This document shows, in pieces, positions 7,992 through 24,434 of a DNA stretch of 64,000 nt. This DNA comes from an uncultured delta proteobacterium (GTDB lineage: Bacteria; Myxococcota_A; Polyangia; Polyangiales; Polyangiaceae): the NCBI GenBank assembly GCA_963841435.1, contig CAWJCS010000002.1:736001-800000 (forward strand), written 5' to 3'. A model generated the notes under the pieces. The model saw only the letters and a list, made by a program, of their open reading frames with translations. It was not told where the DNA came from and ran no database searches. The stretch's first letter is position 1. Each line of letters opens with the position of its first letter. The position numbers and the translations under genes were made by a program.

Positions 7992-8242
7992 CGTCCCCCG
8001 CTCTTAGCATCGCTTGCGGCCGGCGGGGAGTGCGCGCGACGACCGAAGCGCGCTGCCTCGCGTGAGAGCGGCTGCTGCGCACGGGCCCACGCGCATCGCT
8101 GATGTGGGCCGGCGCAAGCCTCGACGCGGCCGTCCGGTTTCTGGCCGATTGCGCCCGGATTGGTCCCGAAATTCCGCCGGTCAACGGATGGTCGCGAGCG
8201 CGGCGGGGTGATGGCGCAGGACGCTGGTGTATCGTCCGTCCC

Positions 8243-8893
8243 GTGCGCCTTTTCGTGACGCTCCTTGCCGTGCTGCTGTCGGCGCTCACGGCGTGCGGCA
8301 CGCCGCCCGAGCCGCGCAGCGCTCCGCCCGAGCGCCCGCGCGCGGCCGCGGTAACGCCAGAGCGTGACCCGTGCGCTTCCGGCGACCCGTCAGCGGACGA
8401 CGCGACCAAGCTTGCCTCCTTTCGCGGTCTGCTGCTCGGCGTGCGCTGCCGCGCGGAGCTGTTCGCCGTCATGAAGAAGACCGCGACGGCGCTCGGTGTC
8501 GCGTGCACACACTGCCACGTCGCGGGCAACTACGCGGCCTCGACGCCCCAAAAGAGCATTGCGAACTGGATGGCAGGGTTCGAGCGCGGGCTCCGGCAGC
8601 GCGGCGGTGGCGCCGTTGCGTGCGCCGATTGCCACGCCTACGACGGCAAGCCACACACCAAAATGCTCGGCGAGCCGCGAAGTCGCACGGCATCCGTCGA
8701 ATGGATGACAACCGTGCTCGCCGAGCGTTTCGAGTCGGCGTCGGGCGAGCCGCTCTACTGCCGCTCGTGCCACGTCGGGGGGCTCGGCGAGCCGAGCTTC
8801 GCGCGCACCGTCATCGGGAGCGAGCACGTGCCGCTCCCCCCGGGCCCAGCTCCCGCCTCGATCGATCGCGCCCCCGGAGCGCCGGATGGCTGA
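8243..8893 (+). CDS. Triheme c-type cytochrome lipoprotein
   Basis: Lipobox LTAC; three CxxCH motifs (CTHCH, CADCH, CRSCH), with Met residues upstream of each; GTG start inferred. Confidence 0.8.
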   Translation: MRLFVTLLAVLLSALTACGTPPEPRSAPPERPRAAAVTPERDPCASGDPSADDATKLASFRGLLLGVRCRAELFAVMKKTATALGVACTHCHVAGNYAASTPQKSIANWMAGFERGLRQRGGGAVACADCHAYDGKPHTKMLGEPRSRTASVEWMTTVLAERFESASGEPLYCRSCHVGGLGEPSFARTVIGSEHVPLPPGPAPASIDRAPGAPDG

Positions 8894-8927
8894 CGAAGTC
8901 GACTCCGTGCGCGCCGCGTGAACGCCG

Positions 8928-10379
8928 CTACTGGACCGGCTTTTCGGCCTGTACTTTTTCGAACAACGCGCGCTCTTCCGGCGTCGCTTCCTCGAGCTCG
9001 GGCGGCTCGGAGAAGCGGTCGAGCTTGCGCTCGAGCGATTTGCGATTCACGCCGAGCAGGCGCGCCGCCGCGCTCTTGTTGCCGCTGCACATCTCGATGG
9101 CGTGGTGCAGGATGGCGCGTTCGATGAGATCGAGCTTCGAGCCGATGCGCGACGGCAGCGCGAGGATGGCGCGCGCCATGCGGTCCACCTCGCGCGCGCC
9201 TTCGGTGAGCTGGCCGCCCACGAGCTCCTCGAGCACGGGCACGTCGACGACTTCCTTTTCGGCGAGCAGCGCGAGGCGCTCGACGCCGTTTTTGAGCTCG
9301 CGCACGTTGCCCGGCCAGCGCCGCCGGCGGATCCATTCGACGGCTTCGTCCGTGAAACGGAGCCTGGGCTGAAACTGCGCCGCGAACGAGTGCAAAAGCT
9401 CGATGACGTCGTCCCCGCGGTCCGCGAGCGAAGGCACGGTCACGGCGACCACGTTGAGGCGGTAGAAGAGATCCTCGCGGAACCGCCCCTCCGCGATGCG
9501 CTTCTCCAGGTCGACGTGGGTCGCGGCGATGACGCGCGCCTTGAGCGGCAGCTCGTCCTCGCCTCCGAGCGGGCGAAAGCGCCGGTCCTCGAGCACGCGC
9601 AAGAGCTTTGCCTGCAGCTCGACGGGCATCTCGGCGATCTCGTCGAGCAGCAGCGTGCCGCTGCCGGCGAGCTCGAGCTGCCCGCGCATGCGCTGCACGG
9701 CTCCGGTGAAGGCGCCGCGCTGGTGGCCGAAGATCAACGATTCGATGAGGTTGCCCGGCAACGCAGAGCAGTTCACGGCCAGAAATGGCTGGCTGCTGCG
9801 GTGGCTCGAGTGGTGGATGGCACGGGCCACCATTTCCTTGCCGCTGCCCGTCTCGCCGAGGATGAGCACGGGTGCTTCCGCGTCCGCGACGCGCGCGACG
9901 AGCTTCATGACGCGCTCCATCGGCGGCGAAGTGCCGATGAGCGCCGCCGGGCCGAAGCTGGTGTCGATGTGTTGCTTGAGCCGCACCACCTCGCTCCGCA
10001 GCTGCAGGCGCTCGCGGATGCCTTCGACGATGGGCAGGAGCATCTCGGGGCCGAGCTCGTCCTTGAGCACGTAGTCCTGAGCGCCCTGGCGCATGGCCTC
10101 GCGGATCTCGGCCAGCTCCGTCGAGGCGGTCACCATGACGGCGGGCGTGGAGCGTCCGCTCTCGCGTAGCCAGCGCAAGAAGGAGAGCCCGCCGCGATCG
10201 GTCGGATTGGGCGACAGCCGGATGTCGACGAGGGCGGCATCCGGATTCTGGCTCTCAACGCGCTCCTTCGCTTCCTCGAGGCTGCCGGCCTCCAGAATCT
10301 CGACGTCCTTGAGCTCGCTAAGCAGGTGGCGGAGCACGCGCCGCGCGCTGCGCTGATCGTCGACGAGGAGGATCTTCAT
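8928..10379 (-). CDS. Sigma-54-dependent response regulator (REC-AAA+-Fis HTH, NtrC family)
   Basis: LLVDD...LVDIRL receiver, GETGSGKE, GAFTGA, LLDEI, FREDLFYRLNV, WPGNVREL, GNKSAAARLLG; 4-nt overlap with the kinase stop. Confidence 0.96.
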   Translation of the reverse strand: MKILLVDDQRSARRVLRHLLSELKDVEILEAGSLEEAKERVESQNPDAALVDIRLSPNPTDRGGLSFLRWLRESGRSTPAVMVTASTELAEIREAMRQGAQDYVLKDELGPEMLLPIVEGIRERLQLRSEVVRLKQHIDTSFGPAALIGTSPPMERVMKLVARVADAEAPVLILGETGSGKEMVARAIHHSSHRSSQPFLAVNCSALPGNLIESLIFGHQRGAFTGAVQRMRGQLELAGSGTLLLDEIAEMPVELQAKLLRVLEDRRFRPLGGEDELPLKARVIAATHVDLEKRIAEGRFREDLFYRLNVVAVTVPSLADRGDDVIELLHSFAAQFQPRLRFTDEAVEWIRRRRWPGNVRELKNGVERLALLAEKEVVDVPVLEELVGGQLTEGAREVDRMARAILALPSRIGSKLDLIERAILHHAIEMCSGNKSAAARLLGVNRKSLERKLDRFSEPPELEEATPEERALFEKVQAEKPVQ

Positions 10380-12768
10380 GCAACCCTTGCTTCCGAGTCG
10401 GCGGCCGCCTCGTTCGGCGCCTGGCGCGCGCCGTCGCGCACGATGTCCTCACCGCGCACGGTCACGGCGAAGACGGTGCGGCTATCGCGGCGCTGCGCCG
10501 CGATGCTCCAGCCGTGCGCGCGCACGAGCCGGTGCGTGATGGCGAGGCCGAGGCCCGTACCGCGTGGCTTGGTGGTGTACCAGGGCGCGAACAGTCGCGA
10601 CGGGTCGCCCACGTAGCCCGGGCCCTCGTCCCACACCGAAAGCTCCCCGCCGCCGCCCGCCGCGCGCCACGCGATGCCGACGCGCCCATTCGGGCCGCAC
10701 GCCTCGAGCGCGTTGGACATCAAGTTCACGAGCACCTGAGTCATCTTGTCCGGATCGCAGCGCAGGGTCGCGTCCGCTCCGAGTCCGAGCTCGATGTGCC
10801 GGTTGCCGAGTGCATCCCCGAGCAGCGTTTCCACGCGCCCGCAGAGCTCCGACACCGGCGTTGGCGCCCGCTCCAGACGGTGAGCGGCCATGCGCTTCAA
10901 CCCCGAGACCAGCCGCTCCAGACGATCCACTTCTTCTCTGCCCACGTCGATGTCGTCGGCCGTCAACGCCACGCTGCGGGAGCCACGCTCGAAGACGCTC
11001 CTGAAGTAGTTGATGGGGTAGCGCACCTCGTGCGCGATCTCGGCCGCGACCGTCTCGACGAGGGCTTCGCGCTCGCCGCGCCATGCCTCTGCCTGCCGGC
11101 GCCGCCGCTCCTCGAGCTCCTGGTAGGCGTGGGCATGGGCGAGCGCGAGCCCACCGTTGTTGGCGATCGTACGCAAGAGATCGATGTCGTCGCTCGTGAA
11201 GAGCGCGCCGCCCCGCTTCGCTCCCGCGTCGAGCCAACCGAACGGTTTGCCGCCGAAAGTGACCTCGAGCCTGAGCTCGGCGTCGCTCGGGCGCGGCGGC
11301 TCGTCGGTCTCGACGCCGGCGCCGGTCGGGCCCTCGCCCGACGCTGGGCCCTCTGCGTCGGCGACGGTGGACCTCCGCGGTGCCGGCGCGAGCGTGAGGT
11401 GAATGTAGTCGCAGGGCAACCAGCGACGCACGGTGCGCTCGATGGCCTGGGTGACCTCTCTCGGCGAGGTGAGCGTCGTCAGCTCCTCGCTCAGACGGTC
11501 GATCGTGGGTTTGTACTGTGAGCGCGACCGAAACAGCGTGAAGTCGCTGACGCGCAGCGCCGAGACGACGAGCACAGCGGCCGCCACGCCGCCGCCCGCG
11601 GCACCGGCCAGCGCATCACGGAAGCTCGCGCCCATCCACGTCGCGAGCGCACCGCCCACGGCGATGGCGAGTGCGCAGGCGAGCGCGCCGACGAACAGGC
11701 TCGTGCCGACGCGAGACAGCAACGCACGACTGCCCCAAAGGTCATAACGCACGAACGCGTACAGGCTCGCGACCGGCGCGAGTAAAAGCGCGGGGAAGAC
11801 GATGGCGTCGGGAAAGGACTTAAGGAGGCCGAGCGAAGTGAGCACGCCCCAAACAGCGACCCCGGTGTAAGCGGGCACCATCGACAGGAGGAGGGCACGT
11901 AGCGTGTCGCGCTGTTCGCCGCGCGACTGGCCGTAGCGAAAGAGAAACCCCGCCACGAACGCTACGAACGAGAGCCCCAGCAAGAGCGTGACGAGGCTCT
12001 GAATCGGCCCGGTATCGCGCCCGAGCAGGTAGGATCCGGTCAGCGTGAGAGCGAAGCAGAGGGCGATCGCCTGGATCAGCGTACGGGTCCAGGGGTGCTT
12101 CCTCACGACGGCGACCGTCGTCGGCAGCTCCAGAACGAGAAGCACGACCACGAAGGGGAGGATGGCGAAGGCCGAAAAGAAAATCGGCGTCAGCGTTCTG
12201 GTCGTGTGAACGTTGAAGAGTGTGAGCAGGAAAAGTCCGCTCGTGACGCCGAACTTGGCGAACGCCCGTGACAACGCGCCACGCGGTCGCGCCCAGAGTG
12301 CGAGCAGACCCGCGCTAGCGTAGACCACGCCGCTAAAAAGAAAGCTGCCCGCGTAGAGCCACCAGCCGATGGGGGAAAGCGGCTGGAGGGCCAGGCGGAC
12401 GACTTCTTGGTCGAGCTACGCTCGACGACGGCATCGAGGTAGCCGACCTTCGCCGCCTCCACGACGGCGGCATCCCACGCGGTGGCCCGGGCCAGGCTTC
12501 CCGTGACCCCTTCCGCCCCCACGGGCAAGACCCGATCAGGAAATTTCAGGCCCAGTCGTCGTCCCGCCCAGTCGTCGAGGCCTAGGCTGGACACCGAACC
12601 GCCCGGATCGACCAGGACGCCCGGGATCGGACGACCATACCAGGTCAGCGCATCGCGGACGGCAACACAGGTCAGCGCGACCAGGAGGCTCGTGAGCACG
12701 ACGATGGCAAGGGTGACCCGCGGTCCGGCGGCATGGTCGTGATCGGCTTGGGGCACGTTGCCCAGCAT
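10376..12768 (-). CDS. Membrane sensor histidine kinase (TM + PDZ-like loop + multi-TM + GAF-like + HisKA/HATPase), one frameshift near 12416
   Basis: The 12190..12768 frame gives TM1 and a PDZ-like stretch (AGRRLGLKFPDRVL...VVER). After a missing base it continues LDQEVVRLALQPLSPIGWWLYAG into 10376..12328, with several TM helices, F-x-x-DDIDLLRTIA, AHEVRYP, NLMSNA, DEGPG, TTKPRGTGLGL. AGGAG RBS upstream. Confidence 0.9.
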
Positions 12769-12786
12769 ACGCGCGCTCCTGCACGC

Positions 12787-12814
12787 CTTCTAGCCGAGCA
12801 CGAATGGGCGTCAA
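12787..12814 (-). promoter_or_regulatory. Putative sigma-70-like promoter for the kinase/regulator pair
   Basis: Minus strand TTGACG-N16-TAGAAG in the 47-bp gap between the S8 stop and the kinase ATG, followed by AGGAG. Confidence 0.45.
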
Positions 12815-12815
12815 T

Positions 12816-14693
12816 TCAGCCCGATCCGGCTCTCAAAGAGCCCGGGTCGGCCGGTCGCTCTGCCTCGCTGGCCGGGACGACTCCGGAGCGGTGCGCTTGG
12901 GTGTTTGGCGCTCGCCCCCACTCGGCCGCGTCGACGAGCTGCCGGAGGATGGCCTCTTCGAGGGCACCCTCAGCCTCCGCCGACGAGCGGGCGCGCAGCG
13001 CCACCTCGAGGCCCAAGAGAGCCTCCTTTCGCGTGCCGCTCGGGTCCGCGTCGGAAAGGACGCGCAGCAATAGCCCGAGCTGCCGGAGCAGGTGGCCCCG
13101 AGGCTGAACGCCGAGCCGTTCCGGATGCCGCGCCCAGACTCGCGCCGCGCGCAGCATGCTCGCGAGCGCGTGGGCCGCGGTCGAATCGCGCATGATGACG
13201 CAAACCGCAAATTGCCACACCGCCCGCGACGTACCCGGGGCAAGCGGGGCGCCACGCGACGCTTCGACGAAAGCCCGGGCAGCGTGGTGTTCTCCCATGC
13301 GCACGAGTGAGAGGGCCACGGGGTCGGTCGCGGCAAGGCAAGCGGTGGTCGCGCTCAAGCGGCCGTACCCGTGCTTGGCATTGTGGCCGTCGTCATCGCT
13401 GCCCAGGGGCTCGAAGTCGCGGCGATCGGCGAGCCCGTGCTCAAAAGCTCGCCCCGACGGATCGAGAGCAACGCTCGTTTCACGGAGCAAGCAATCCACG
13501 TCGGGCAAAGTGAGCAGCGGATTCGTCGCAAGCAGGAGCAGGAAGACACCACTCGCGACGCCGGACGCGCCGCTGGACTCCGCGTGCCATGCCCGCTCCT
13601 CTTCAGCGAACGGGTAGGCCATGTCGTCGCCCGGAGCGAGGAAGCGCACCGACGGACCGCGATTCGCGAATGGCCTCAGGCGCCCGCGTCGGTCGAGCCA
13701 GAGGAACCAGCCACCGTCGCGGGCGCTCGGCCCGATGCAGAATACGCGAGGATCGGCCGCGGGCTCACCCAGGCCGAGGCTGAGGCTCGAATGGACCGAA
13801 TCGTGTGGGCTCGACATCTCGCGGCCCGTGGGCATCACGACGACGGTGCCGCGTCCGCCGCGCCCAACGCGCACCGCGAGCTCGAGCGCGTCGTCGAGCA
13901 TGGGGCTGGTTTGCCCCTCGACGTACGTCGCGCACACGATGACGTCGGCGCCGTCCTCGACGGCGCGCGCGATGGCGAGCGGTAGCGTCCACACGTCGTT
14001 GCCCGGCTTGGGAATGCAGTAGAAGCGGGGGGACGCGTCGGGAGCGATGCCCGAGAAGCGCTTCCCGTTCGCAGCCGTCGCTCCTACCGCCCAGCCGAGC
14101 ATCAGTGCGGCGTGCGAGTGCGACCGCGGTATCGCAGCGACGGCGACGGGCACCTCCGCCTCGAGCGGGATGCGCTCGAGTTCGAGCCCGTCGTTGTCGA
14201 TCACCGCGAGTCGCGTGCCAGCACCGGTCCCGCAAAAGCGGCGGTTAACGTCCGCACCCTTCGCCCGAAGGAACCAGCGCCAGGGCGTGTCGGCTTCGAC
14301 GAGCTCCGTTGGCCCGCGCGCGGGCCAGTCGCGCGCTTGTCGTCGGGCGCGCGTCACGCAGAAATCGAGGCGCGGGGGAAGGGTCTGCGTGCCGCGCCTC
14401 GCCGAGGTGACGTAGCGCACGCGAGCGGAGCCTAGACGGCGAGATACCTCCCGGCGATCGAGCTTCTTCGAAGACTCGACCCGCGTCCAAAAGATCGGGT
14501 GATTGCTGAACAGGGGCGTCACTGCAACGTCGGGGGCGAGGTCCGAAAGCGCGCGAGTGACCTCCACGGGATCGATGTCCTCGCAGGTCGCAACGACGAG
14601 GTCCTGCTCCGGTTGGCCCTCGTCGCCACCCCCATCGGGATCGGCGCGTAGTCGAAGTCCCAACTCGGGTCCGGGTCCGCCCGCGCCGCTCAC
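12816..14693 (-). CDS. S8 (subtilisin-like) serine peptidase, divergent
   Basis: GAGTRLAVIDND (Asp), HSHAALMLG (His), FLAPGDD...ESSGASG (Ser), HNAKHGYGRL. GTG start at 14693 overlaps the upstream TGA (GTGA); the track's 15302 start lies inside the upstream gene. Confidence 0.82.
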   Translation of the reverse strand: MSGAGGPGPELGLRLRADPDGGGDEGQPEQDLVVATCEDIDPVEVTRALSDLAPDVAVTPLFSNHPIFWTRVESSKKLDRREVSRRLGSARVRYVTSARRGTQTLPPRLDFCVTRARRQARDWPARGPTELVEADTPWRWFLRAKGADVNRRFCGTGAGTRLAVIDNDGLELERIPLEAEVPVAVAAIPRSHSHAALMLGWAVGATAANGKRFSGIAPDASPRFYCIPKPGNDVWTLPLAIARAVEDGADVIVCATYVEGQTSPMLDDALELAVRVGRGGRGTVVVMPTGREMSSPHDSVHSSLSLGLGEPAADPRVFCIGPSARDGGWFLWLDRRGRLRPFANRGPSVRFLAPGDDMAYPFAEEERAWHAESSGASGVASGVFLLLLATNPLLTLPDVDCLLRETSVALDPSGRAFEHGLADRRDFEPLGSDDDGHNAKHGYGRLSATTACLAATDPVALSLVRMGEHHAARAFVEASRGAPLAPGTSRAVWQFAVCVIMRDSTAAHALASMLRAARVWARHPERLGVQPRGHLLRQLGLLLRVLSDADPSGTRKEALLGLEVALRARSSAEAEGALEEAILRQLVDAAEWGRAPNTQAHRSGVVPASEAERPADPGSLRAGSG

Positions 14694-15655
14694 GTCAGCA
14701 CCTCGGCCGCCCACGAGCCGAGCTTGATGGCGCGCACGACGTACCCGGCGTGGCGATCTTCCAGCGGCAAAAGGGCGTCGAGGCGGACTTGGCGTTGCTC
14801 TGCCCAGCGAGCGAGCGTGTCGGCGCCGAGCGCTCGTGCGTGGCGCCAGGCGGTTCGGTACTGATGCCGTGCGTCCCGCAACATCAGGTACAAGACACGC
14901 ATCCCTAGCACCCGGCGGCGAACGATGTCGGGCTCCGTGGGGCGCTCGTTTTTGGGGTCCTGTTTCACTGCCTCGAGCCGCCGCCTCGCGAGCGATACCG
15001 CCCACGCGCCGCCGCCGCGCCGCCAATCGTCCTCCCAGTCCCCGGCATCGTCCTCGAACTGGAGGCCGAGCCAGACACCCGCGAGCAGGCGGTGGACCTG
15101 CTCGACCTGAATGGGAGAGGCACCCGACGCGCGAGCCAGCGCGAGCGTGGCCGGAAAGCCAACTGCCTGTTTCGCGAGTGAGATGCGCCGATAGTCGCCG
15201 AACGTGACGGCAGCGATGCGACTCAGTAGGGCGTGCTCTTCGAGGATTGCCTCGCTGGTTTCTCGGTCTGCCGCTTCCGCGAGCGCCACGGTGTCCGGGC
15301 ACAGCTCCGCCAACAATCGATCGCGACCGCTCCGGAGCTCGGCAAGGAGCAAGAGCAGCTCCGGGGTGGGACTGATTTGCCGGTCGGCGACGCGGTCCGT
15401 GCCGAATGCTTCGATGACCGACAAGGCGTGTGCAAGCACGGCAAGACGGACGTGCTCGGGGCGCGCCATGGGGAACGCCTCGGCGACCAAGCTCGGCGCC
15501 TCGAGCGTTACCGCGTGGTTGAAGACATCGCTCCAGGCCTTACCGCTGACCGGGGCGAGCCCCAACAAATGCGGAAGGTCGCGGGCAATCCCGCGCAGTG
15601 CAGGAGGTAGCGCATTCGCGTAGCCCGCGTAGAGCGCGTCTATCATGGATGTCAT
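14690..15655 (-). CDS. Class I isoprenoid-synthase-fold protein (polyprenyl synthetase/ComQ-like prenyltransferase)
   Basis: FARM-like AHALSVIEAFGTDRVADRQ, KT-like DYRRISLAKQA, SARM-like GLQFEDDAGDWEDD; predicted all-helical. Confidence 0.78.
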   Translation of the reverse strand: MTSMIDALYAGYANALPPALRGIARDLPHLLGLAPVSGKAWSDVFNHAVTLEAPSLVAEAFPMARPEHVRLAVLAHALSVIEAFGTDRVADRQISPTPELLLLLAELRSGRDRLLAELCPDTVALAEAADRETSEAILEEHALLSRIAAVTFGDYRRISLAKQAVGFPATLALARASGASPIQVEQVHRLLAGVWLGLQFEDDAGDWEDDWRRGGGAWAVSLARRRLEAVKQDPKNERPTEPDIVRRRVLGMRVLYLMLRDARHQYRTAWRHARALGADTLARWAEQRQVRLDALLPLEDRHAGYVVRAIKLGSWAAEVLT

Positions 15656-15715
15656 CGAGGGAGACGATTCGGTCCGAGGAAAGTTGTCCCCCCCTCGGTG
15701 AGCGCGCTCAATCAG

Positions 15716-16036
15716 TCAGTAGCCGTTCGACTCCTTCCAGGGAGAGATCGCGACGTTGATCCGCTCGTTGACGACGATGCTCCGCCAGAGAACCACCTGG
15801 GCGGCGCTGAGCTCCTCGAAGTCACCGCAGACCCAGTCCGTGATGCGGGCGTTCAATTGCGCGCGCACGCGACGTGCGTCGTCGTTCTCTTCGGTGGCGT
15901 CTTCGGTCGTAGGATAAAGAGCGAGCAGCTGCTTGAATTCGTCGAAGCGGTTCTGATCTTCCAAAAGTGAAATGTAGAGGCGGCGAAGCTGAGCGTGGGG
16001 GTCGGTGGCGTGCATTTGGGTAGCGACGGCGGTCAT
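15716..16036 (-). CDS. 106-aa small protein, candidate precursor peptide ending ...VAISPWKESNGY
   Basis: ATG at 16036 preceded by AAGGAG; non-shadow amino-acid composition; first gene of the co-oriented cluster. Confidence 0.8.
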   Translation of the reverse strand: MTAVATQMHATDPHAQLRRLYISLLEDQNRFDEFKQLLALYPTTEDATEENDDARRVRAQLNARITDWVCGDFEELSAAQVVLWRSIVVNERINVAISPWKESNGY

Positions 16037-16097
16037 TGGGTGGTTTTTCTCCTTGATGCATGCGGGTGAGAGCCCGCACTGCTGGCCCCCCCAGACG

Positions 16098-16113
16098 TGC
16101 AAGGATCGTGCAC
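16098..16113 (-). promoter_or_regulatory. Sigma-54 (-24/-12)-like promoter upstream of the peptide gene
   Basis: Minus strand GTGCACG-ATCC-TTGCA against consensus TGGCACG-N4-TTGCW: correct spacing, but TG replaces the conserved GG; about 62 nt upstream of the ATG. Confidence 0.55.
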
Positions 16114-16177
16114 ACGTCGTGACCTCCAGGAAGCACCCGCATTTGCGCGGATCGCGTCGCGCGCGCCGGTTGACGCT

Positions 16178-16214
16178 GGTCGGATCCGGCCAAGCGCGGG
16201 GTCGGATCCGGCCA
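16178..16214. promoter_or_regulatory. Two identical 15-bp near-palindromic boxes (GGTCGGATCCGGCCA), 22-bp period; candidate enhancer (UAS)
   Basis: Copies at 16178-16192 and 16200-16214 with palindromic core CGGATCCG; about 90-125 bp upstream of the inferred sigma-54 start site. Confidence 0.65.
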
Positions 16215-16267
16215 CTCGTCGCCGCATCGCAACGTCGCTACGCTCGCGTGCGAGTCAGCGCGTGCCG

Positions 16268-16576
16268 ATGCCCGTCCTGTTGTTCGTCTACGGATCCCTC
16301 ATGCGTGGGGGGAAACATCACGCCGAGCTCGCCGATGCGCGTTTCGTCGGGCCAGCTGCGACCGAGCGCCGTTGCGGCGTCGTGCGGGTCGCGGAGTATC
16401 CGGCGCTCGTGCCCGGAAACGACGTAGTCCCCGGAGAGCTCTACGAAATCGACGAGACGAGCTTGCTCGCGCTCGATGCTTTCGAGGGCGAAATGTACCG
16501 TCGCGACACCGTAGCGCTCGACGACGGCCGCGTGGTGCTGGCCTATGTTCTCGCCGCCGCCGCGGGGCCGTATTAG
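16268..16576 (+). CDS. Gamma-glutamylcyclotransferase (GGCT/AIG2-like) family protein
   Basis: [26 protein letters not shown]-x-x-Y-x-R motifs. Confidence 0.88.
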
Positions 16577-16586
16577 GCCCTCACCC

Positions 16587-17439
16587 ATGAGGCTGATTCG
16601 CTTCGGCGCTCCCGGTAACGAGCGTCCCGGCGTGCTCGTTGGGGGCGATCGGCGCGACGTTTCCGAGGTATTTCGCGACTGGGATCGCGACTTCTTCGAG
16701 AGCGACGGGCTTGCGCAACTTGCGCAGCTTCTCGCACGCAGCGTCGCGACGTTGCCCGTCGTCGATGCGTCCGAGCGCTGGGCGTCGTGCGTGGCGCGAC
16801 CCGGCAAGGTGCTCTGCATCGGGCTCAACTATCGCGACCACGCGCGCGAGTCGGGTGCGGAGCTTCCCAAGGAGCCGGTGCTGTTCCTCAAGGCCGCCAA
16901 CACCGTCGTCGGTCCGTACGACGACGTTCAGGATTCCGCGCAGCAGCGCGAAGACGGATTGGGAGGTCGAGCTCGGCGTCGTCGTCGGCAAGCGTGCTCG
17001 CTACGTGCCTTCGGCGAGCGCGGCCCTCGAGCACGTCGCAGGCTACACGATCTCGCACGATGTCTCCGAGCGCGAGTTCCAGCTCGAGCGCGGTGGGCAG
17101 TGGACGAAGGGGAAGTCGTGCGACACCTTCAATCCGCTCGGGCCGTACCTGGCCACGCCTGACGAGGTGGGCGATCCTCAGGCTCTCGCGCTCGGTCTCG
17201 ACGTGAACGGCGTGCGCCGCCAGTCCGGAAATACGCGGGATATGGCGTTCGGGGTGGCCGAAATCGTTCGCTACGTGTCCGAGTTCATGACGCTCGAGGG
17301 CGGCGACGTCATCAGCACGGGGACGCCGGCGGGCGTCGGGCTCGGCATGAAGCCGCCCGTCTACCTGAAGAACGGCGACGTGTGCGAGCTGTTCGTGGAA
17401 AAGCTCGGCACCCAGCGCCAAACGTTTCGGAGCGAGTGA
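16587..17439 (+). CDS. Fumarylacetoacetate hydrolase family protein, one +1 frameshift near 16931
   Basis: [17 protein letters not shown] in the first frame; [32 protein letters not shown] in the second; deleting one G of GG restores DDVQIPR. Confidence 0.9.
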
Positions 17440-17458
17440 CCGAGCGCTGGCTGGGACT

Positions 17459-19168
17459 TCAGTCCTCGCCCAGCCAGGGAGCGAGGTACTTCGAGGTGAA
17501 ACGCGCGAAGGCGCGCGCCATGACCTCTTGGTACACTTCCTCGGGAGGGACCTCGCCGGCCTCGATGCGACGCCGTTCGGGAGCGAGCCACGCCGTGTGC
17601 TTGAACGTGTCGGGCGGCTCCTTGTCGGGCACGCTGAGCGTCGCCTCGGCGACGAGGCCGACGCCCGCGAAGATCGCGCGAGGCTTCTTGGTCACGAACG
17701 CGCCCGAGATCTCGAGGCGGTAACTCACGAACAGTGTCGGCACCTCGAAGCTGGGCGTGGATGTGCCTTCGACGGGTGGGCCGAGCTCGAAGTGCAAGAG
17801 GTCGGCCGGGAACACTTCGGCAAAGCCCGCAGTGAGCTCGTCGGCCGCGGCCTTTTCGGCCTTCCTGACCGGGGCGCCCACGAGGTAGCGGGTGGGCAGC
17901 GTCTTCTGCCCGCCGTAGTAGGCGCTCGCCGTGATCAAGTGCTCGTTCTTCTCGAGCGTGCGCGACTCGCGCTGGGCGAAGCGGATCTGAGCCTCGGGGC
18001 CGTGTTGATCCGCGTAGACGATCAAGCGGCGCGCGAGCAGCCATTCCTCGCGAGTGGGCTTGTGCTCCTTTTGGAAACGATCGAGGACGCCCGACAGGTA
18101 GGCGAAGCGGGCCTGCGGTAGCTCGGGCACGAGCGGGAGGTGTCGGGCGTGTCGCTTCTCGAAAGCGCGGAACGCCGTGATGGTGTTCTTCTTCTTCGTT
18201 TCCTCGAGCGCCGCGAGCAGCGCCGTGCGCAACGCTGCTTGAACCTCGGTCTGGATCTTCGAGCCTGGATGGCCCTCCATGTACCGCTCGATCGCTTCGA
18301 CCGAGTGCGCCGCGATCGCCTCGCGGAGCTCGGCACGCGGTAGGAGCAATTCGGTCACGTCGCTCCGCTTGCCGCCGCGCGAGAGATAGGCGCGGTAGCC
18401 CTCGACGCTGTCCTTCTGCCGTGCCACGGCGTAGATGGCTCGCTCACCGAGCGTGTTTCGCACCGCGAACGAGGCCACGCCGAGCAGCCCTAGCGCCACG
18501 AGCACCAAGACCGGCCACAGCACGAGCTTCTTGGGCGCGAGGGGCCGCATGGACTCCGACGGAGAGAACGGGTTTCTGAAACCGTTGTCGCGTAGCGGAT
18601 TGAGCAGCACCAGGTCGCGCTCCTCGAGCGTCCCGGTCCCCACGCGTTCTTTGAGCTCGGTCACCCGTTGCTCGAGCTCAGCGAGGTTCATGCTCGGCCC
18701 GACGGGGAAGGTGAAGCTGCCGCCGACGAATTCGAAGCTTGCACGACCCGGCACGATGGAGTGCTGCTTCAGATCCTCCCAGCCGTGCTGCACCAGGTGG
18801 GCGGAGCGTGCGTTGACGACACCGATCGGGAAGAGGTACGTGGTCTGTACGAACGGCAGCCGGGCGCGGCGGGCGACGCTGCGGCGTGCCATGAGCGCCG
18901 CAATGCCGGCCAGCACCGGCAGGGCGACGTGCAGGATCCCCATCCAGCGAGGCTGCACGGCGAGCGAGCTCTCGAGCTTTCCGTAGCCGAGCCCCGCGAG
19001 GTAGAGCCAGGCCGCGGCGAGCAGCACGGCGAGCAGCACCCAGCGCCATGCGCCGAGGGGCACGGCCTGCTTGCCGACGAGCAGCGGCGGCACGCCCAGG
19101 CCGCGGCTTGCGTTGACGAAGCGCTCCTGGACGGGACGCTCGAGCTTGTAGAATTCGAGGCGCTTCAT
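17459..19168 (-). CDS. Hypothetical membrane protein (about 3 TM, large soluble C-terminal part)
   Basis: 569-aa ORF with ordinary composition and hydrophobic segments; short helical repeats (SVEGYRAYLS, SVEAIERYME, TITAFRAFEK). Confidence 0.72.
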   Translation of the reverse strand: MKRLEFYKLERPVQERFVNASRGLGVPPLLVGKQAVPLGAWRWVLLAVLLAAAWLYLAGLGYGKLESSLAVQPRWMGILHVALPVLAGIAALMARRSVARRARLPFVQTTYLFPIGVVNARSAHLVQHGWEDLKQHSIVPGRASFEFVGGSFTFPVGPSMNLAELEQRVTELKERVGTGTLEERDLVLLNPLRDNGFRNPFSPSESMRPLAPKKLVLWPVLVLVALGLLGVASFAVRNTLGERAIYAVARQKDSVEGYRAYLSRGGKRSDVTELLLPRAELREAIAAHSVEAIERYMEGHPGSKIQTEVQAALRTALLAALEETKKKNTITAFRAFEKRHARHLPLVPELPQARFAYLSGVLDRFQKEHKPTREEWLLARRLIVYADQHGPEAQIRFAQRESRTLEKNEHLITASAYYGGQKTLPTRYLVGAPVRKAEKAAADELTAGFAEVFPADLLHFELGPPVEGTSTPSFEVPTLFVSYRLEISGAFVTKKPRAIFAGVGLVAEATLSVPDKEPPDTFKHTAWLAPERRRIEAGEVPPEEVYQEVMARAFARFTSKYLAPWLGED

Positions 19169-21998: not shown

Positions 21999-23279
21999 CT
22001 AGAGCAGCCCGGCCTCGGTCATGAAGGTGCGCTCGACGCGCCCGTAGTCCACGCGCACGTCGAGGCGTGAAAGCACCGAATAGAAACCGAATTGCAGGCG
22101 ATTCAAGAACAGCATCGCGGGCGGGAGCATGACGAAGCTGTTGTCCTTCGCCCAGAACAGCTTCTTCATCGCCTTGAGCTCCTCCACGAGGCTCGTCGTG
22201 TAAGTGCGGGTGATGTGGAACGGCGAGTGGAACATCGGATCGAAACAGCGCCGCGAGTACTCGACGGCGCGCGTTCCGTAGGCGCCGCCGTGCGTGCCGA
22301 GCAGGATCTCGGCCTGGCGCGCGAACTCGGCTTCGTTGCGTGAAAGCGCCGCGAGATGCATGGCGCGCGCCGTCGGCAGCCGATCGGCCGCGATCGGTTG
22401 CACGCAACCGAAGTCGAGGAACGTGACCAAGCCGTCAGGGCCGAACAGGTAATTGCCAGGGTGAGGGTCGGCGTTGAACATCCCGCCGACGAGGTTTCCC
22501 TTGAACACGAAGCGCCACAACGTCTCCGCCCAGGCGCGGCGCTCGGCTTCGCTCGCCTCGGTGGCGCGCTCGTACGAGATGCCCCCGGCGAGCGCCGTCG
22601 TGAGCACGCGTCGGCTCGAGCGCTCGGGCATGACCTCGGGTATCTTGATCTTCTCGTCGCCTGCGTGAAGCTTCGCGAACGCACGCTGCCGCTCCGCTTC
22701 GAGCTCGTAGTCGAGCTCCTCGCGGAAGCGCGTGGCGACCTCGTCGTAGGCCGCCTGCGCGTTCAGGCCGCGCGGGCCGAGCGCCGAAACGAGGCCCTGC
22801 ATCAGGCCGGCGTTCTTGAGGTCGCTTTCCACGGCACTCGCGATGCCTGGATGCTGCACCTTCACCGCGACCTGGCGGCCGTCGGGCAGGGTGGCGCGGT
22901 GAACCTGGCCGATCGACGCGCTCGCGAAGGGTCGCTCGTCGAAGGTCTCGAAGAGCTTGCCGATGGGCGCGCCGAGCTCGTCCTCGATGAGGCCGCGGAT
23001 CGCGTCCGGCGAGGAACGGGGTGCCCTGTCACGCAGCCTCGCGAGCGCTCGCTCGTAGGTCTCGCGCTGTGCTTCCGGAACGAGCCCATCGACGTAGCTC
23101 AGCGTCTGGCCGACCTTCGCCGCGAGTCCGCGCAGGGTGCCGAGGACCTCGGCGGCGTACTCGGCCGCGTCGGGCCCGCTCTTCGAGACGATGAAGCCCG
23201 CTCCGGCTCGCGCGCCCACCCCGGCGAGTCGGACCACGCGCCCGAGACGCCCGGTTGGCAGGCTCGGGGTTTTGGACAT
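21999..23279 (-). CDS. ABC1/AarF/UbiB family atypical kinase
   Basis: KVGQ, PFASASIGQVHRA, VAVKVQHPG, EELDY, NADPHPGN, LDFGC. Confidence 0.93.
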   Translation of the reverse strand: MSKTPSLPTGRLGRVVRLAGVGARAGAGFIVSKSGPDAAEYAAEVLGTLRGLAAKVGQTLSYVDGLVPEAQRETYERALARLRDRAPRSSPDAIRGLIEDELGAPIGKLFETFDERPFASASIGQVHRATLPDGRQVAVKVQHPGIASAVESDLKNAGLMQGLVSALGPRGLNAQAAYDEVATRFREELDYELEAERQRAFAKLHAGDEKIKIPEVMPERSSRRVLTTALAGGISYERATEASEAERRAWAETLWRFVFKGNLVGGMFNADPHPGNYLFGPDGLVTFLDFGCVQPIAADRLPTARAMHLAALSRNEAEFARQAEILLGTHGGAYGTRAVEYSRRCFDPMFHSPFHITRTYTTSLVEELKAMKKLFWAKDNSFVMLPPAMLFLNRLQFGFYSVLSRLDVRVDYGRVERTFMTEAGLL

Positions 23280-23356
23280 GCTCCGATGCTAGCGGATTTT
23301 CGAGAACGGGCCGCTCGGCGTCTGGCCGAGCCCGGAGACCGCCGTGCCGGTGCCGG

Positions 23357-24322
23357 TCAGCCGAGGGTCGGATCCGGCGACCCGGAGACGATCCCTGGCG
23401 CGGCTTTCTTGGTGGCGTGCGGCAGCTGCAGGGCCGGATCGTACACCCGCGCCGGAGGCTCTTTGATGTCCCAGACGAGGCCGACGAGCCCGAGTAGACG
23501 TAGCAAGTAGTAGGTGAGGTCGATTTCCCACCAGTAGAAGCCCTGGCGCGTCGAGCCCATGAAGTGGTGGTGGTTGTTGTGCCAACCCTCGCCCATCGTG
23601 ACGATGGCGAGCACCCAGTTGTTCGTGCTCGCGTCGCCCGCGTCGTAGCGCTGCGTGCCGAGCATGTGCGAGAGCGAGTTGATGGTGAACGTACCGTGCC
23701 AGAGGAGCGCCGTGCTGAGGAAGAAGCCGATCAGCAGGCCGGACCAGCCGAACAGGAGCCAGACACTCACGCCGAGCAGCGCCGGGGGCAAGAACCAGAA
23801 CTTGTTCAGGAACACGAGCTCGGGGTAGCGCGCAAGGTCGCGCACCTTGCTGTAGTCGGTCTTCTCGGTGTGGTCGTAGAGCCAGCCGAAGTGCGAGTAC
23901 CAGAAACCGCGCCGCGAATCGTGGGGGTCGCCGTCCTGATCGGAGAGCTTGTGGTGCACCCTGTGCTTCGAGGCCCACCAGATCACGCCCTTCTGCGAGC
24001 TCGACATGGCGAGGACGGCCAGCAAGAACTGGAAGAAGCGGCTCGTCTTGTAGGTGCGGTGCGAAAAGTAGCGGTGGTAAACGCCCGTGACCCCGAACAT
24101 CCGGATCCAGTAAAGAGCCACGCAGACCGCCCAGTCCTGCCACTTGGTCCCGGTATAAAACGCGAGCAGCGGCAGTGCGTGGACGATGATGAAGGGGGTG
24201 GCCCCCAACCACTGGTACTCGGAGAGCTTCGTGGCGCGCTGCGTGGGGGCCGGCGGATCGTAGGAAACGGAAAGAAGGCTCACCTCCCGAAGATGGCATC
24301 GGGTGGCGATGGCCACGGTCAC
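23357..24322 (-). CDS. Acyl-CoA (delta-9-type) fatty acid desaturase
   Basis: His boxes HRYFSH, HRVHH, GEGWHNNHH; INSLSH; start uncertain. Confidence 0.92.
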   Translation of the reverse strand: MTVAIATRCHLREVSLLSVSYDPPAPTQRATKLSEYQWLGATPFIIVHALPLLAFYTGTKWQDWAVCVALYWIRMFGVTGVYHRYFSHRTYKTSRFFQFLLAVLAMSSSQKGVIWWASKHRVHHKLSDQDGDPHDSRRGFWYSHFGWLYDHTEKTDYSKVRDLARYPELVFLNKFWFLPPALLGVSVWLLFGWSGLLIGFFLSTALLWHGTFTINSLSHMLGTQRYDAGDASTNNWVLAIVTMGEGWHNNHHHFMGSTRQGFYWWEIDLTYYLLRLLGLVGLVWDIKEPPARVYDPALQLPHATKKAAPGIVSGSPDPTLG

Positions 24323-24434
24323 GGTTCTGTCAGAAACCCGTCAGAGGGGGGGGGCCGCGAGCGGGCGAGCGGCCGGTCGGCCCGTCGCCGGCAGGCGGGT
24401 GGTCTCGCCGGCGCTCAGCCTGGAACGAGGCCGC

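Follow-up and report, generated by a model that had tools for sequence, protein, structure and literature searches.

The module of five co-oriented genes described here occupies positions 8928..16214 of a 64,000-nt stretch of DNA (the window; roughly 69% GC; contig CAWJCS010000002.1 of an uncultured Polyangiaceae bacterium, phylum Myxococcota) and is likened to two described peptide systems, ComQXPA of Bacillus subtilis and, especially, PalP-PalX-PalQ (PalPXQ) of Paenibacillus alvei. In ComQXPA, as in the window, an enzyme with the isoprenyl diphosphate synthase (IPPS) fold adjoins a small open reading frame (ORF) with a Trp near its C-terminus, a polytopic kinase and a response regulator follow on the same strand with overlapping or coupled genes, and both a signal peptide and a dedicated exporter are absent. 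The two differ in gene order (Q-X-P-A against X-Q-(S8)-P-A here, S8 being an extra subtilisin-like protease), in the precursor (52-73 residues and hypervariable for ComX against 106 residues and conserved here), in the regulator (NarL/LuxR type against NtrC type and sigma-54 here) and in the aspartate-rich motifs of the enzyme, since ComQ combines a first aspartate-rich motif (FARM) with a degenerate second one (pseudo-SARM), whereas the enzyme here is without a FARM and has a full, expanded SARM. The hosts differ as well: in its accessible text, a 2014 census reports comQXPA-like loci as confined to Firmicutes, with none outside that phylum (PMC4008528), and a 2026 preprint, likewise accessible in part, extends ComQ-like enzymes to Chloroflexota (bioRxiv 10.64898/2026.08.29.745113).

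PalPXQ, as far as the accessible text of its description goes (PMC10853753), likewise joins a kinase and a long-leader precursor to a remote prenyltransferase of the IPPS superfamily, and the discovery of PalQ was led by an AlphaFold2 (AF2) model of like geometry, in which the tail Trp enters the active site. A Gln stands three residues before the SARM Asp in both enzymes (Q197/D200 in PalQ, Q199/D202 here) and the FARM-to-SARM spacing is similar (111 residues in PalQ, 115 here). The leader of PalX is of NHLP type, its Trp stands strictly at the C-terminus, and PalQ activity is abolished once PalX is extended at this end (PMC10853753), whereas in the window the Trp is seventh from the end and the leader belongs to no family; PalQ carries a FARM (D89/D93), of which the enzyme here has no canonical form, and neither an S8 protease nor a sigma-54 regulator is described for the PalPXQ cluster in the accessible text (PMC10853753). 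StheQ, which acts with StheX in Sphaerobacter thermophilus, and the indole prenyltransferase Ord1 share with our enzyme the all-alpha IPPS fold and a Gln/Asp dyad on the SARM helix. According to the accessible parts of two reports, ComQ, StheQ and Ord1 use the FARM (D85/D89 in the latter two) for binding Mg and the donor diphosphate, and their SARM is degenerate and, in StheQ and Ord1, free of metal, the opposite of the pattern found here (bioRxiv 10.64898/2026.08.29.745113; PMC12510300); the substrate of Ord1 is free indole (PMC12510300).

From the ORF coordinates (Table 1), the minus strand carries in order the small ORF, a 321-residue ORF, an S8-like ORF, the kinase and the NtrC-type regulator, as a first-pass annotation made from the sequence alone had read them, and the two couplings that it had pointed out, a GTGA shared by the enzyme stop and the protease start and a 4-nt overlap of the kinase TGA with the regulator ATG, were both found. 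GC content at third codon positions is 0.78-0.90 in all five genes, whose codon-position GC signature is that of real genes. No sigma-70-like promoter or intrinsic terminator was predicted inside the operon on the coding (minus) strand, and no Rfam family was detected in 8000-17500. The anatomy given by the first-pass annotation is thus upheld, with corrections to the size of the peptide, the frame of the kinase and the presence of a PDZ domain that are detailed below.

To this anatomy is added a consistent pattern of co-occurrence. A scan of genome contigs gave 108 pattern matches, 8 of which encode relatives, all in Polyangiaceae or other Myxococcota metagenome-assembled genomes (MAGs). The gene order small gene, enzyme, (S8), kinase, regulator, which the annotation had proposed to look for across Myxococcota, recurs in these 8 loci wherever the contig extends. 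The enzyme is present in 8/8 loci, the small gene in 7/8 (the remaining one, L001, lacks the upstream DNA), the kinase in 7/8, the regulator in 6/8 and S8 in 5/8, and the expected co-occurrence of enzyme homologues with the small protein and the kinase is therefore observed. In metagenomic data, taking longest contigs of the same size as a proxy, at least 36 of the 120 listed enzyme entries pair with a small-protein entry, at least 41 with an S8 entry and at least 19 with both. Across the loci the helical part of the small protein (about 95 residues) is 48-86% identical, as conserved as the enzyme. We regard it as highly probable that the small protein is the dedicated partner or substrate of the enzyme within a self-regulated module.

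Enzyme fold, motifs and predicted complex with the small protein

The 321-residue enzyme matches no Pfam or NCBIfam family, and an Atlas search gave a single lead ('isoprenoid', at rank 20). Its family is unannotated and comprises at least 295 matches in a word-indexed search (8000 candidates scored) and 377 clusters at 50% identity in an exhaustive profile search (E<=0.001). We modelled the enzyme with AF2 from 23 homologues (predicted local distance difference test, pLDDT, 90.8; predicted template modelling score, pTM, 0.89) and compared the model with the PDB using Foldseek, yielding 26 matches at E<=0.001. All listed matches are trans-polyprenyl diphosphate synthases or the all-alpha indole prenyltransferase Ord1 (template modelling scores 0.5-0.7), with Ord1 chains among the top matches and the heterodimeric hexaprenyl diphosphate synthase 3aqb_B among the best (0.70). 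A profile of 88 family representatives matches the Caulobacter trans-IPPS 3oyr (E 2.2e-5), the alignment placing Y155/K162 on the KT lysine region and GLQxxDDVxDW on the FQxxDDxxD SARM, and 14 of the 88 members touch Pfam polyprenyl_synt (PF00348; best E 9.9e-5). Two other comparisons were negative: a narrow profile of 23 sequences gave nothing significant against PDB sequences (E 0.3 for a geranylgeranyl diphosphate synthase), and when the family profile was compared with E. coli IspA by hhalign, so as to place the FARM, no usable alignment resulted (probability 0.1). Because the Foldseek matches are joined by significant remote homology of the broad profile, the isoprenoid-synthase fold that the first-pass annotation had proposed for this protein is confirmed.

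The SARM is intact and expanded (D202-D203-A-G-D206-W-E208-D209-D210), and it is entered through the stretch Q199-F-E-D202-D203, in which Q199 is kept in 74, D202 in 62 and D203 in 81 of the 88 representatives. The spacing of Q199 and D202 equals that of Q216/D219 in Ord1 and Q197/D200 in PalQ, and a review, accessible in part, names a Gln that precedes the first Asp of the SARM by one helical turn as the tryptophan-recognition determinant (PMC13290415). Judged by these residues, the enzyme keeps the element by which known peptide and indole prenyltransferases hold Trp. Near-invariant in the family are H76, R88, Y155, K162, D203, W207, W218 and W284. At the candidate FARM position, at the end of the corresponding long helix, the enzyme reads IEAFGTD87RVAD91; of the 88 representatives, 60 have D and 13 have E at position 87, D91 is kept in 66 and E82 in 33. 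Because a canonical FARM, the motif that defines and powers ComQ, StheQ and Ord1, is absent, the enzyme is, going by its motifs, an analogue or distant cousin of ComQ and not a member of the ComQ family.

The small protein ends ...VAISPWKESNGY in the window and belongs to an orphan family of 347 homologues. Pfam and NCBIfam hold no family for it, an Atlas search gave nothing usable (best score 0.80), and its AF2 model, of moderate confidence (pLDDT 67.8), consists of four helices and a tail and has no PDB fold match at E<=0.001. By sequence it is not an NHLP- or Nif11-like leader, and by fold this mediocre model neither supports nor excludes such a leader. It is conserved end to end, with a mean column identity of 73% and a tail consensus of ...INVA[LIV]SPW[KR]E[SA]N-x-Y: among the 120 listed homologues (of 347), all terminate in [KR]-E-[SA]-N-x-Y and 119 keep the Trp. 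Inside this near-invariant stretch, the penultimate position, with 11 residue types and an entropy of 3.03 bits, belongs to the protein's most variable columns. What had been described as a small Trp-tailed peptide does have the Trp tail and is not a short variable peptide, being 106 residues long and conserved along its full length; likewise, the variable C-termini expected across relatives were not seen, as only the penultimate residue varies.

We then predicted the complex of the enzyme and the small protein, resulting in a median score of 0.64 against 0.00 for the best control. A score of 0.64 is reached by 116 of 157 solved complexes and by 2 of 215 mismatched pairs, counts that serve only as a rough calibration here, since our own alignments were supplied for the complex runs. 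At least 41% of contacts are common to the runs, and the pLDDT of the partner is at least 68. In the best run, helices 14-31 and 83-95 of the small protein pack on the conserved C-terminal helices 298-320 of the enzyme, most of the predicted interface being helix-helix, and tail residues 97-103, including W100, lie in a confident interface with enzyme residues 33-50, 198 (L198), 202 (D202), 246 and 250. The small protein is thus predicted to bind the enzyme with its tail at the Q199/D202 site. According to the accessible part of the 2026 preprint, no enzyme-peptide complex of the ComQ-like family has been solved (bioRxiv 10.64898/2026.08.29.745113), so that a passing score is unlikely to come from the memory of the model.

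Protease, sensor kinase, regulator and upstream region

The S8 protein of the window scores 19.1 bits against Pfam S8 (cut-off 21.8) and weakly matches the mycosin model of NCBIfam, and many of its 459 homologues are named S8 peptidase or carry a precomputed PF00082. In an alignment to subtilisin, D166, H194 and S374 stand at the catalytic triad positions, in the Asp-His-Ser order of S8, and Arg291 stands at the position of the oxyanion-hole Asn155, so that the oxyanion Asn is lacking; at least 97% of 120 homologues share each of these four residues. The S8 protease of the first-pass annotation is accordingly supported in its triad, the window protein itself remaining below the Pfam cut-off. 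About 150 extra N-terminal and about 200 extra C-terminal residues have no family match. Maturation of the product would be cytoplasmic, because the protease, the enzyme and the small protein are all without an N-terminal hydrophobic segment.

S8 peptidases are known beside precursors and modifying enzymes of peptides made by the ribosome and modified after translation (RiPPs), examples being the LanP leader peptidases and the macrocyclase PatG. The protein described here resembles them as an S8 protease with conserved Asp-His-Ser encoded by the precursor and the modifying enzyme; it differs in its predicted cytoplasmic location, in its 625 residues with extra N- and C-terminal regions, in the Arg at the oxyanion-Asn position and in its loss in one clade along with the last two residues of the precursor. 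This clade consists of the three loci without S8 (L003, L004 and L006; support 99/96), where the small protein ends ...W[KR]E[ST]N without x-Y and SPW is replaced by S[AG]W. The joint loss of S8 and x-Y was considered as evidence of C-terminal trimming by S8 and was downgraded, as one clade amounts to a single evolutionary event; going by these sequences, it is suggestive for the role of S8. In two other loci, tblastn matches to S8 are split among frames (L007, 9005-10541; L008, 9017-10743), as is the match to the regulator in L007 (13094-14483), and these splits may be frameshifts or assembly errors in the MAGs.

Intact homologues of the kinase comprise one transmembrane (TM) segment, an extracytoplasmic stretch of about 100 residues, about 9 TM segments, a GAF-like region, HisKA and HATPase_c. 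In the window, codons 1-117 are off-frame from the 680 codons that follow (coordinates in Table 1). An alignment of the DNA with two relatives places a single missing base near 12414-12420, and the kinase reads through in one frame in five related loci; the break could be a true pseudogene or an assembly error. Frameshift aside, the kinase is polytopic (about 10 TM segments), downstream and on the same strand, as the kinase of ComQXPA is. No PDZ domain was detected by Pfam in the window kinase fragment or in four intact homologues, and the earlier description of a PDZ-like, multi-TM kinase is retained for its polytopic nature and dropped for PDZ, the 1-nt frameshift having been passed over silently. 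Two of the related loci carry shortened kinases: the one in L003 (3668-6010) is without most of the extracytoplasmic segment of about 100 residues, and the one in L006 (9150-10643), an ORF of 490 residues, lacks the multi-TM region, with about 230 residues unmatched.

The regulator combines Response_reg, Sigma54_activat and HTH_8 and matches the NtrC model TIGR01818 at 5e-104, making it a complete NtrC-type activator by Pfam and NCBIfam and agreeing with its first reading as a sigma-54 response regulator; the NarL/LuxR-type helix-turn-helix (PF00196) of ComA was not found in it. The NCBIfam LuxO model also matches, at E 3.4e-87, below its cut-off. In Vibrio, LuxO is an NtrC-family sigma-54 activator that acts as the output of a quorum-sensing phosphorelay. 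The likeness lies in the use of a sigma-54 activator as signalling output, and the differences in the signals, in the receptors and in direct positive feedback on the precursor operon; given LuxO and the sub-threshold match to its model, a sigma-54 output cannot be called wholly unprecedented in quorum sensing.

Upstream of the small gene are two palindromes whose centres are separated by 22 bp. Their GTCGGATCCGGC pattern occurs 3 times in the window, where 0.40 occurrences would be expected, and a count of 3 was reached in 1 of 100 shuffles. In an alignment of the upstream regions of 7 loci and the window, the CGGATCCG cores of both boxes are invariant in all 8 regions, save for one substitution in L005, where one box reads CGCATCCG, and the spacing of the boxes is 21-22 bp in the window, L003, L004 and L008 (counted by eye). 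About 70-100 bp downstream of the palindromes is a sigma-54-type element, GCACGATCCTTGCA, whose GC-N7-TTGC (G, C and TTGC) is invariant in 8/8 aligned regions. The sigma-54 consensus is TGGCACG-N4-TTGCW, and the element fits it except at the upstream G of the -24 GG doublet, which is T in the window and C in most relatives, GG being found in L008 only. Paired activator sites of such promoters are expected about 80-150 bp upstream, against about 70-100 bp here. The paired boxes that the first-pass annotation noted as enhancer-like are present and conserved as sequences, and its sigma-54-like promoter is matched in the core and not in the upstream G of the GG doublet. Because this promoter and enhancer architecture is conserved, the layout would fit one sigma-54 operon positively controlled by its own regulator. 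A third, lone GTCGGATCCGGC box (23367-23378) sits at the 3' end of a minus-strand ORF for a fatty-acid desaturase (23357..24340); an ABC1-kinase gene on the same strand (21999..23288) follows about 80 nt downstream of the box. A wider regulon resting on the CGGATCCG core of this third box was considered and rejected, there being no convincing sigma-54 core nearby.

Proposed circuit and competing explanations

The circuit that we propose would start with the phosphorylated NtrC-type regulator, which, acting on the two boxes, would turn on the sigma-54 promoter and with it all five genes. The small protein would bind through its helices to those at the C-terminus of the IPPS-fold enzyme, and this docking would put the tail (SPW100KESN-x-Y) in the active site beside Q199 and D202, where the enzyme would modify Trp100, most likely by prenylation. 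The cytoplasmic S8 protease would process the product by cutting off the helical leader or by trimming x-Y from its end, and the lipidated product would reach the envelope, where the kinase with its roughly 10 TM segments would sense it and close a positive loop. In this chain the gene order, fold, motifs, conservation and promoter architecture are observed, the binding of the small protein by the enzyme is predicted by a model, and we infer the chemistry, the cleavage site, the export and the sensing by the kinase. We put forward the whole chain, in which a system activates itself by producing and sensing a modified peptide, in the manner of ComQXPA and PalPXQ and from different parts, as a tentative proposal whose chances we judge to be close to even and slightly below.

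Several observations weigh against this chain. In the enzyme, no canonical FARM (DDxxD/DExxD) is found at the expected place, and D91 is replaced by G, L, T or A in several close relatives. In the small protein, Trp100 is seventh from the C-terminus, against last, second or third from the end in PalX, StheX and ComX168, and hypervariability of the ComX kind is not seen, the tail being invariant bar the penultimate residue; the lone exception to the conserved Trp among the 120 listed homologues has Arg in its place (...SPRRESNVY), perhaps through a sequencing error or as a natural variant that has lost its function. The small protein, the enzyme and S8 have neither an N-terminal hydrophobic segment nor a signal peptide, no exporter or other extra gene is conserved in the flanks of the module across the loci, and S8 is dispensable in the clade of L003, L004 and L006. 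To these are added the frame break in the window kinase and the nature of the complex score, which is the model's own confidence and, as stated above, is only roughly calibrated.

The trio of precursor, enzyme and protease would serve a RiPP natural-product cluster equally well. The small protein would then be a leader-core precursor, modified by the IPPS-fold enzyme and freed of its leader by S8, what results would be an antibiotic, a surfactant or another metabolite and not a ligand of the kinase, and the two-component system would answer another cue. A tail that is conserved and not diversified into pherotypes is consistent with this, as are kinase N-terminal sensor regions that are variably deleted (L003, L006) while the module persists. 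We nevertheless consider such a cluster unlikely: the kinase and the regulator are coupled to the biosynthetic genes (4-nt overlap, single sigma-54 operon) and co-occur with them at every locus whose contig reaches far enough, the promoter that the regulator presumably activates precedes the precursor gene, which is the classic layout of autoinduction, and immunity and export genes are not conserved. The helical part of the small protein, about 95 residues that are as conserved as the enzyme (48-86% identity across loci), points in another direction, namely to a protein that stays uncut as a folded partner of the IPPS-fold protein. It might be a Trp-lipidated, membrane-tethered accessory that modulates the kinase from the cytoplasmic side, S8 trimming x-Y in a loosely CaaX-like way, or it might play the part that the regulatory small subunit has in heteromeric medium-chain prenyl diphosphate synthases, the pair making a free isoprenoid. 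The mostly helix-helix interface of the predicted complex, the absence of signal peptides from all three proteins, the match to the heterodimeric hexaprenyl diphosphate synthase 3aqb_B and the ...ESN ending without x-Y in the S8-less clade, as if S8 only trimmed the C-terminus, argue for an uncut partner. However, precursors of NHLP type, PalX among them, normally have long and conserved leaders, the confident interface of tail 97-103 with L198/D202 fits a substrate better than a subunit, a dedicated protease of 625 residues with a conserved triad suggests real proteolytic maturation, and the joint loss of S8 and x-Y, as a single evolutionary event, has little statistical weight; on balance we find an uncut partner improbable in either form.

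The IPPS-fold protein might also be no prenyltransferase at all, and act as a scaffold that presents the small protein to S8 or carry out other chemistry on the tail through its DDxxDWEDD motif. The FARM is not conserved, though it binds the donor and coordinates Mg in all characterised relatives, and the enzyme belongs to no Pfam or NCBIfam family, both of which speak for such a role. Yet K162, Q199, D203, R88, Y155 and three Trp are near-invariant in the family of 377 clusters, which argues for a maintained active site, and for forward prenylation a model with one Mg, at the SARM alone, was put forward by the authors of the PalQ study, although PalQ D200A/D204A kept activity. A role without prenyl transfer is in our judgement distinctly unlikely. 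The reading as an autoinducing lipopeptide pheromone, which the first-pass annotation had put forward and which we prefer, is supported in part: the fold, the Trp tail, the predicted binding, the polytopic kinase and the NtrC-type output speak for it, and the lack of ComX-like hypervariability and of a conserved exporter does not.

Feature coordinates, flanking genes and significance

Table 1. Features of the module in the window, with the small genes of the clade that lacks S8 (positions in their own loci).
Feature	Position	Strand	Remarks
Distal enhancer-like palindromic box	16201..16212	.	GTCGGATCCGGC; wider consensus TGGnCGGATCCGnCCA; pairs with the proximal box
Proximal enhancer-like palindromic box	16179..16190	.	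GTCGGATCCGGC
Sigma-54-type promoter core GCACG-N4-TTGCA (-24/-12)	16098..16111	minus	GCACGATCCTTGCA
Small protein, 106 residues, candidate precursor or substrate	15716..16036	minus	four predicted helices and conserved tail
321-residue trans-IPPS-fold protein, candidate peptide prenyltransferase	14690..15655	minus	key residues K162, Q199, D202-D203-x-x-D206-W-E-D-D
625-residue S8 (subtilisin-like) serine protease	12816..14693	minus	GTG start overlaps TGA stop of the enzyme gene
Sensor kinase gene, 5' part	12418..12768	minus	TM1 and start of the extracytoplasmic segment of about 100 residues
Sensor kinase, main part	10376..12415	minus	about 9 more TM segments, GAF-like region, HisKA, HATPase_c
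NtrC-type response regulator	8928..10379	minus	receiver, sigma-54 AAA+ with GAFTGA, Fis-type helix-turn-helix
Small gene of S8-less clade, L003	2424-2729		
Small gene of S8-less clade, L004	7688-7993		
Small gene of S8-less clade, L006	7673-7978		

The genes flanking the module vary between loci and are of housekeeping type. In the window, a gamma-glutamylcyclotransferase-like (GGACT) gene (16097-16576, plus strand) and a gene of the fumarylacetoacetate-hydrolase family (16639-17439, plus strand) are divergent from the operon. An unannotated ORF of similar size (about 281-282 residues) is found at the same relative place and in the same orientation in L003, L004 and L006, and this shared divergent ORF may reflect synteny within the lineage rather than membership in the module. 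In the same three loci, a gene for a major facilitator superfamily transporter lies just downstream of the regulator.

The first-pass annotation was aware of no description of such a system in myxobacteria, and in agreement with this our literature search, whose coverage of subscription journals was poor and left most of them out, gave no description of such a system in Myxococcota. Characterised cases in which an IPPS-fold enzyme prenylates Trp of a ribosomal peptide come only from Firmicutes (ComQ, PalQ) and from one species of Chloroflexota (2026 preprint); the ChrPC system that the review mentions (PMC13290415) was not traced to an organism. IPPS-fold peptide prenyltransferases are sought as tools for the lipidation of peptides. 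If the proposed circuit is true, it would add a large unannotated enzyme family (377 clusters at 50% identity) whose inverted motif pattern challenges the FARM-centred mechanism, and the locus would offer a compact, testable circuit of precursor, enzyme, protease, kinase, sigma-54 activator and defined DNA boxes.

To our knowledge, peptide quorum sensing is essentially undescribed in Myxococcota. It is conceivable, if somewhat unlikely, that Polyangiaceae and related Myxococcota signal from cell to cell by a ribosomal, Trp-lipidated peptide that induces its own production, which would be the first prenyl-peptide pheromone of ComX type in a diderm, with catalysis moved from the first to the expanded second aspartate-rich motif and with the penultimate residue of the tail (...SPWKESN-x-Y) acting as a one-residue specificity code or as a handle for S8 cutting after Asn. 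If true, the module would extend lipopeptide pheromone signalling to the social, diderm Myxococcota.

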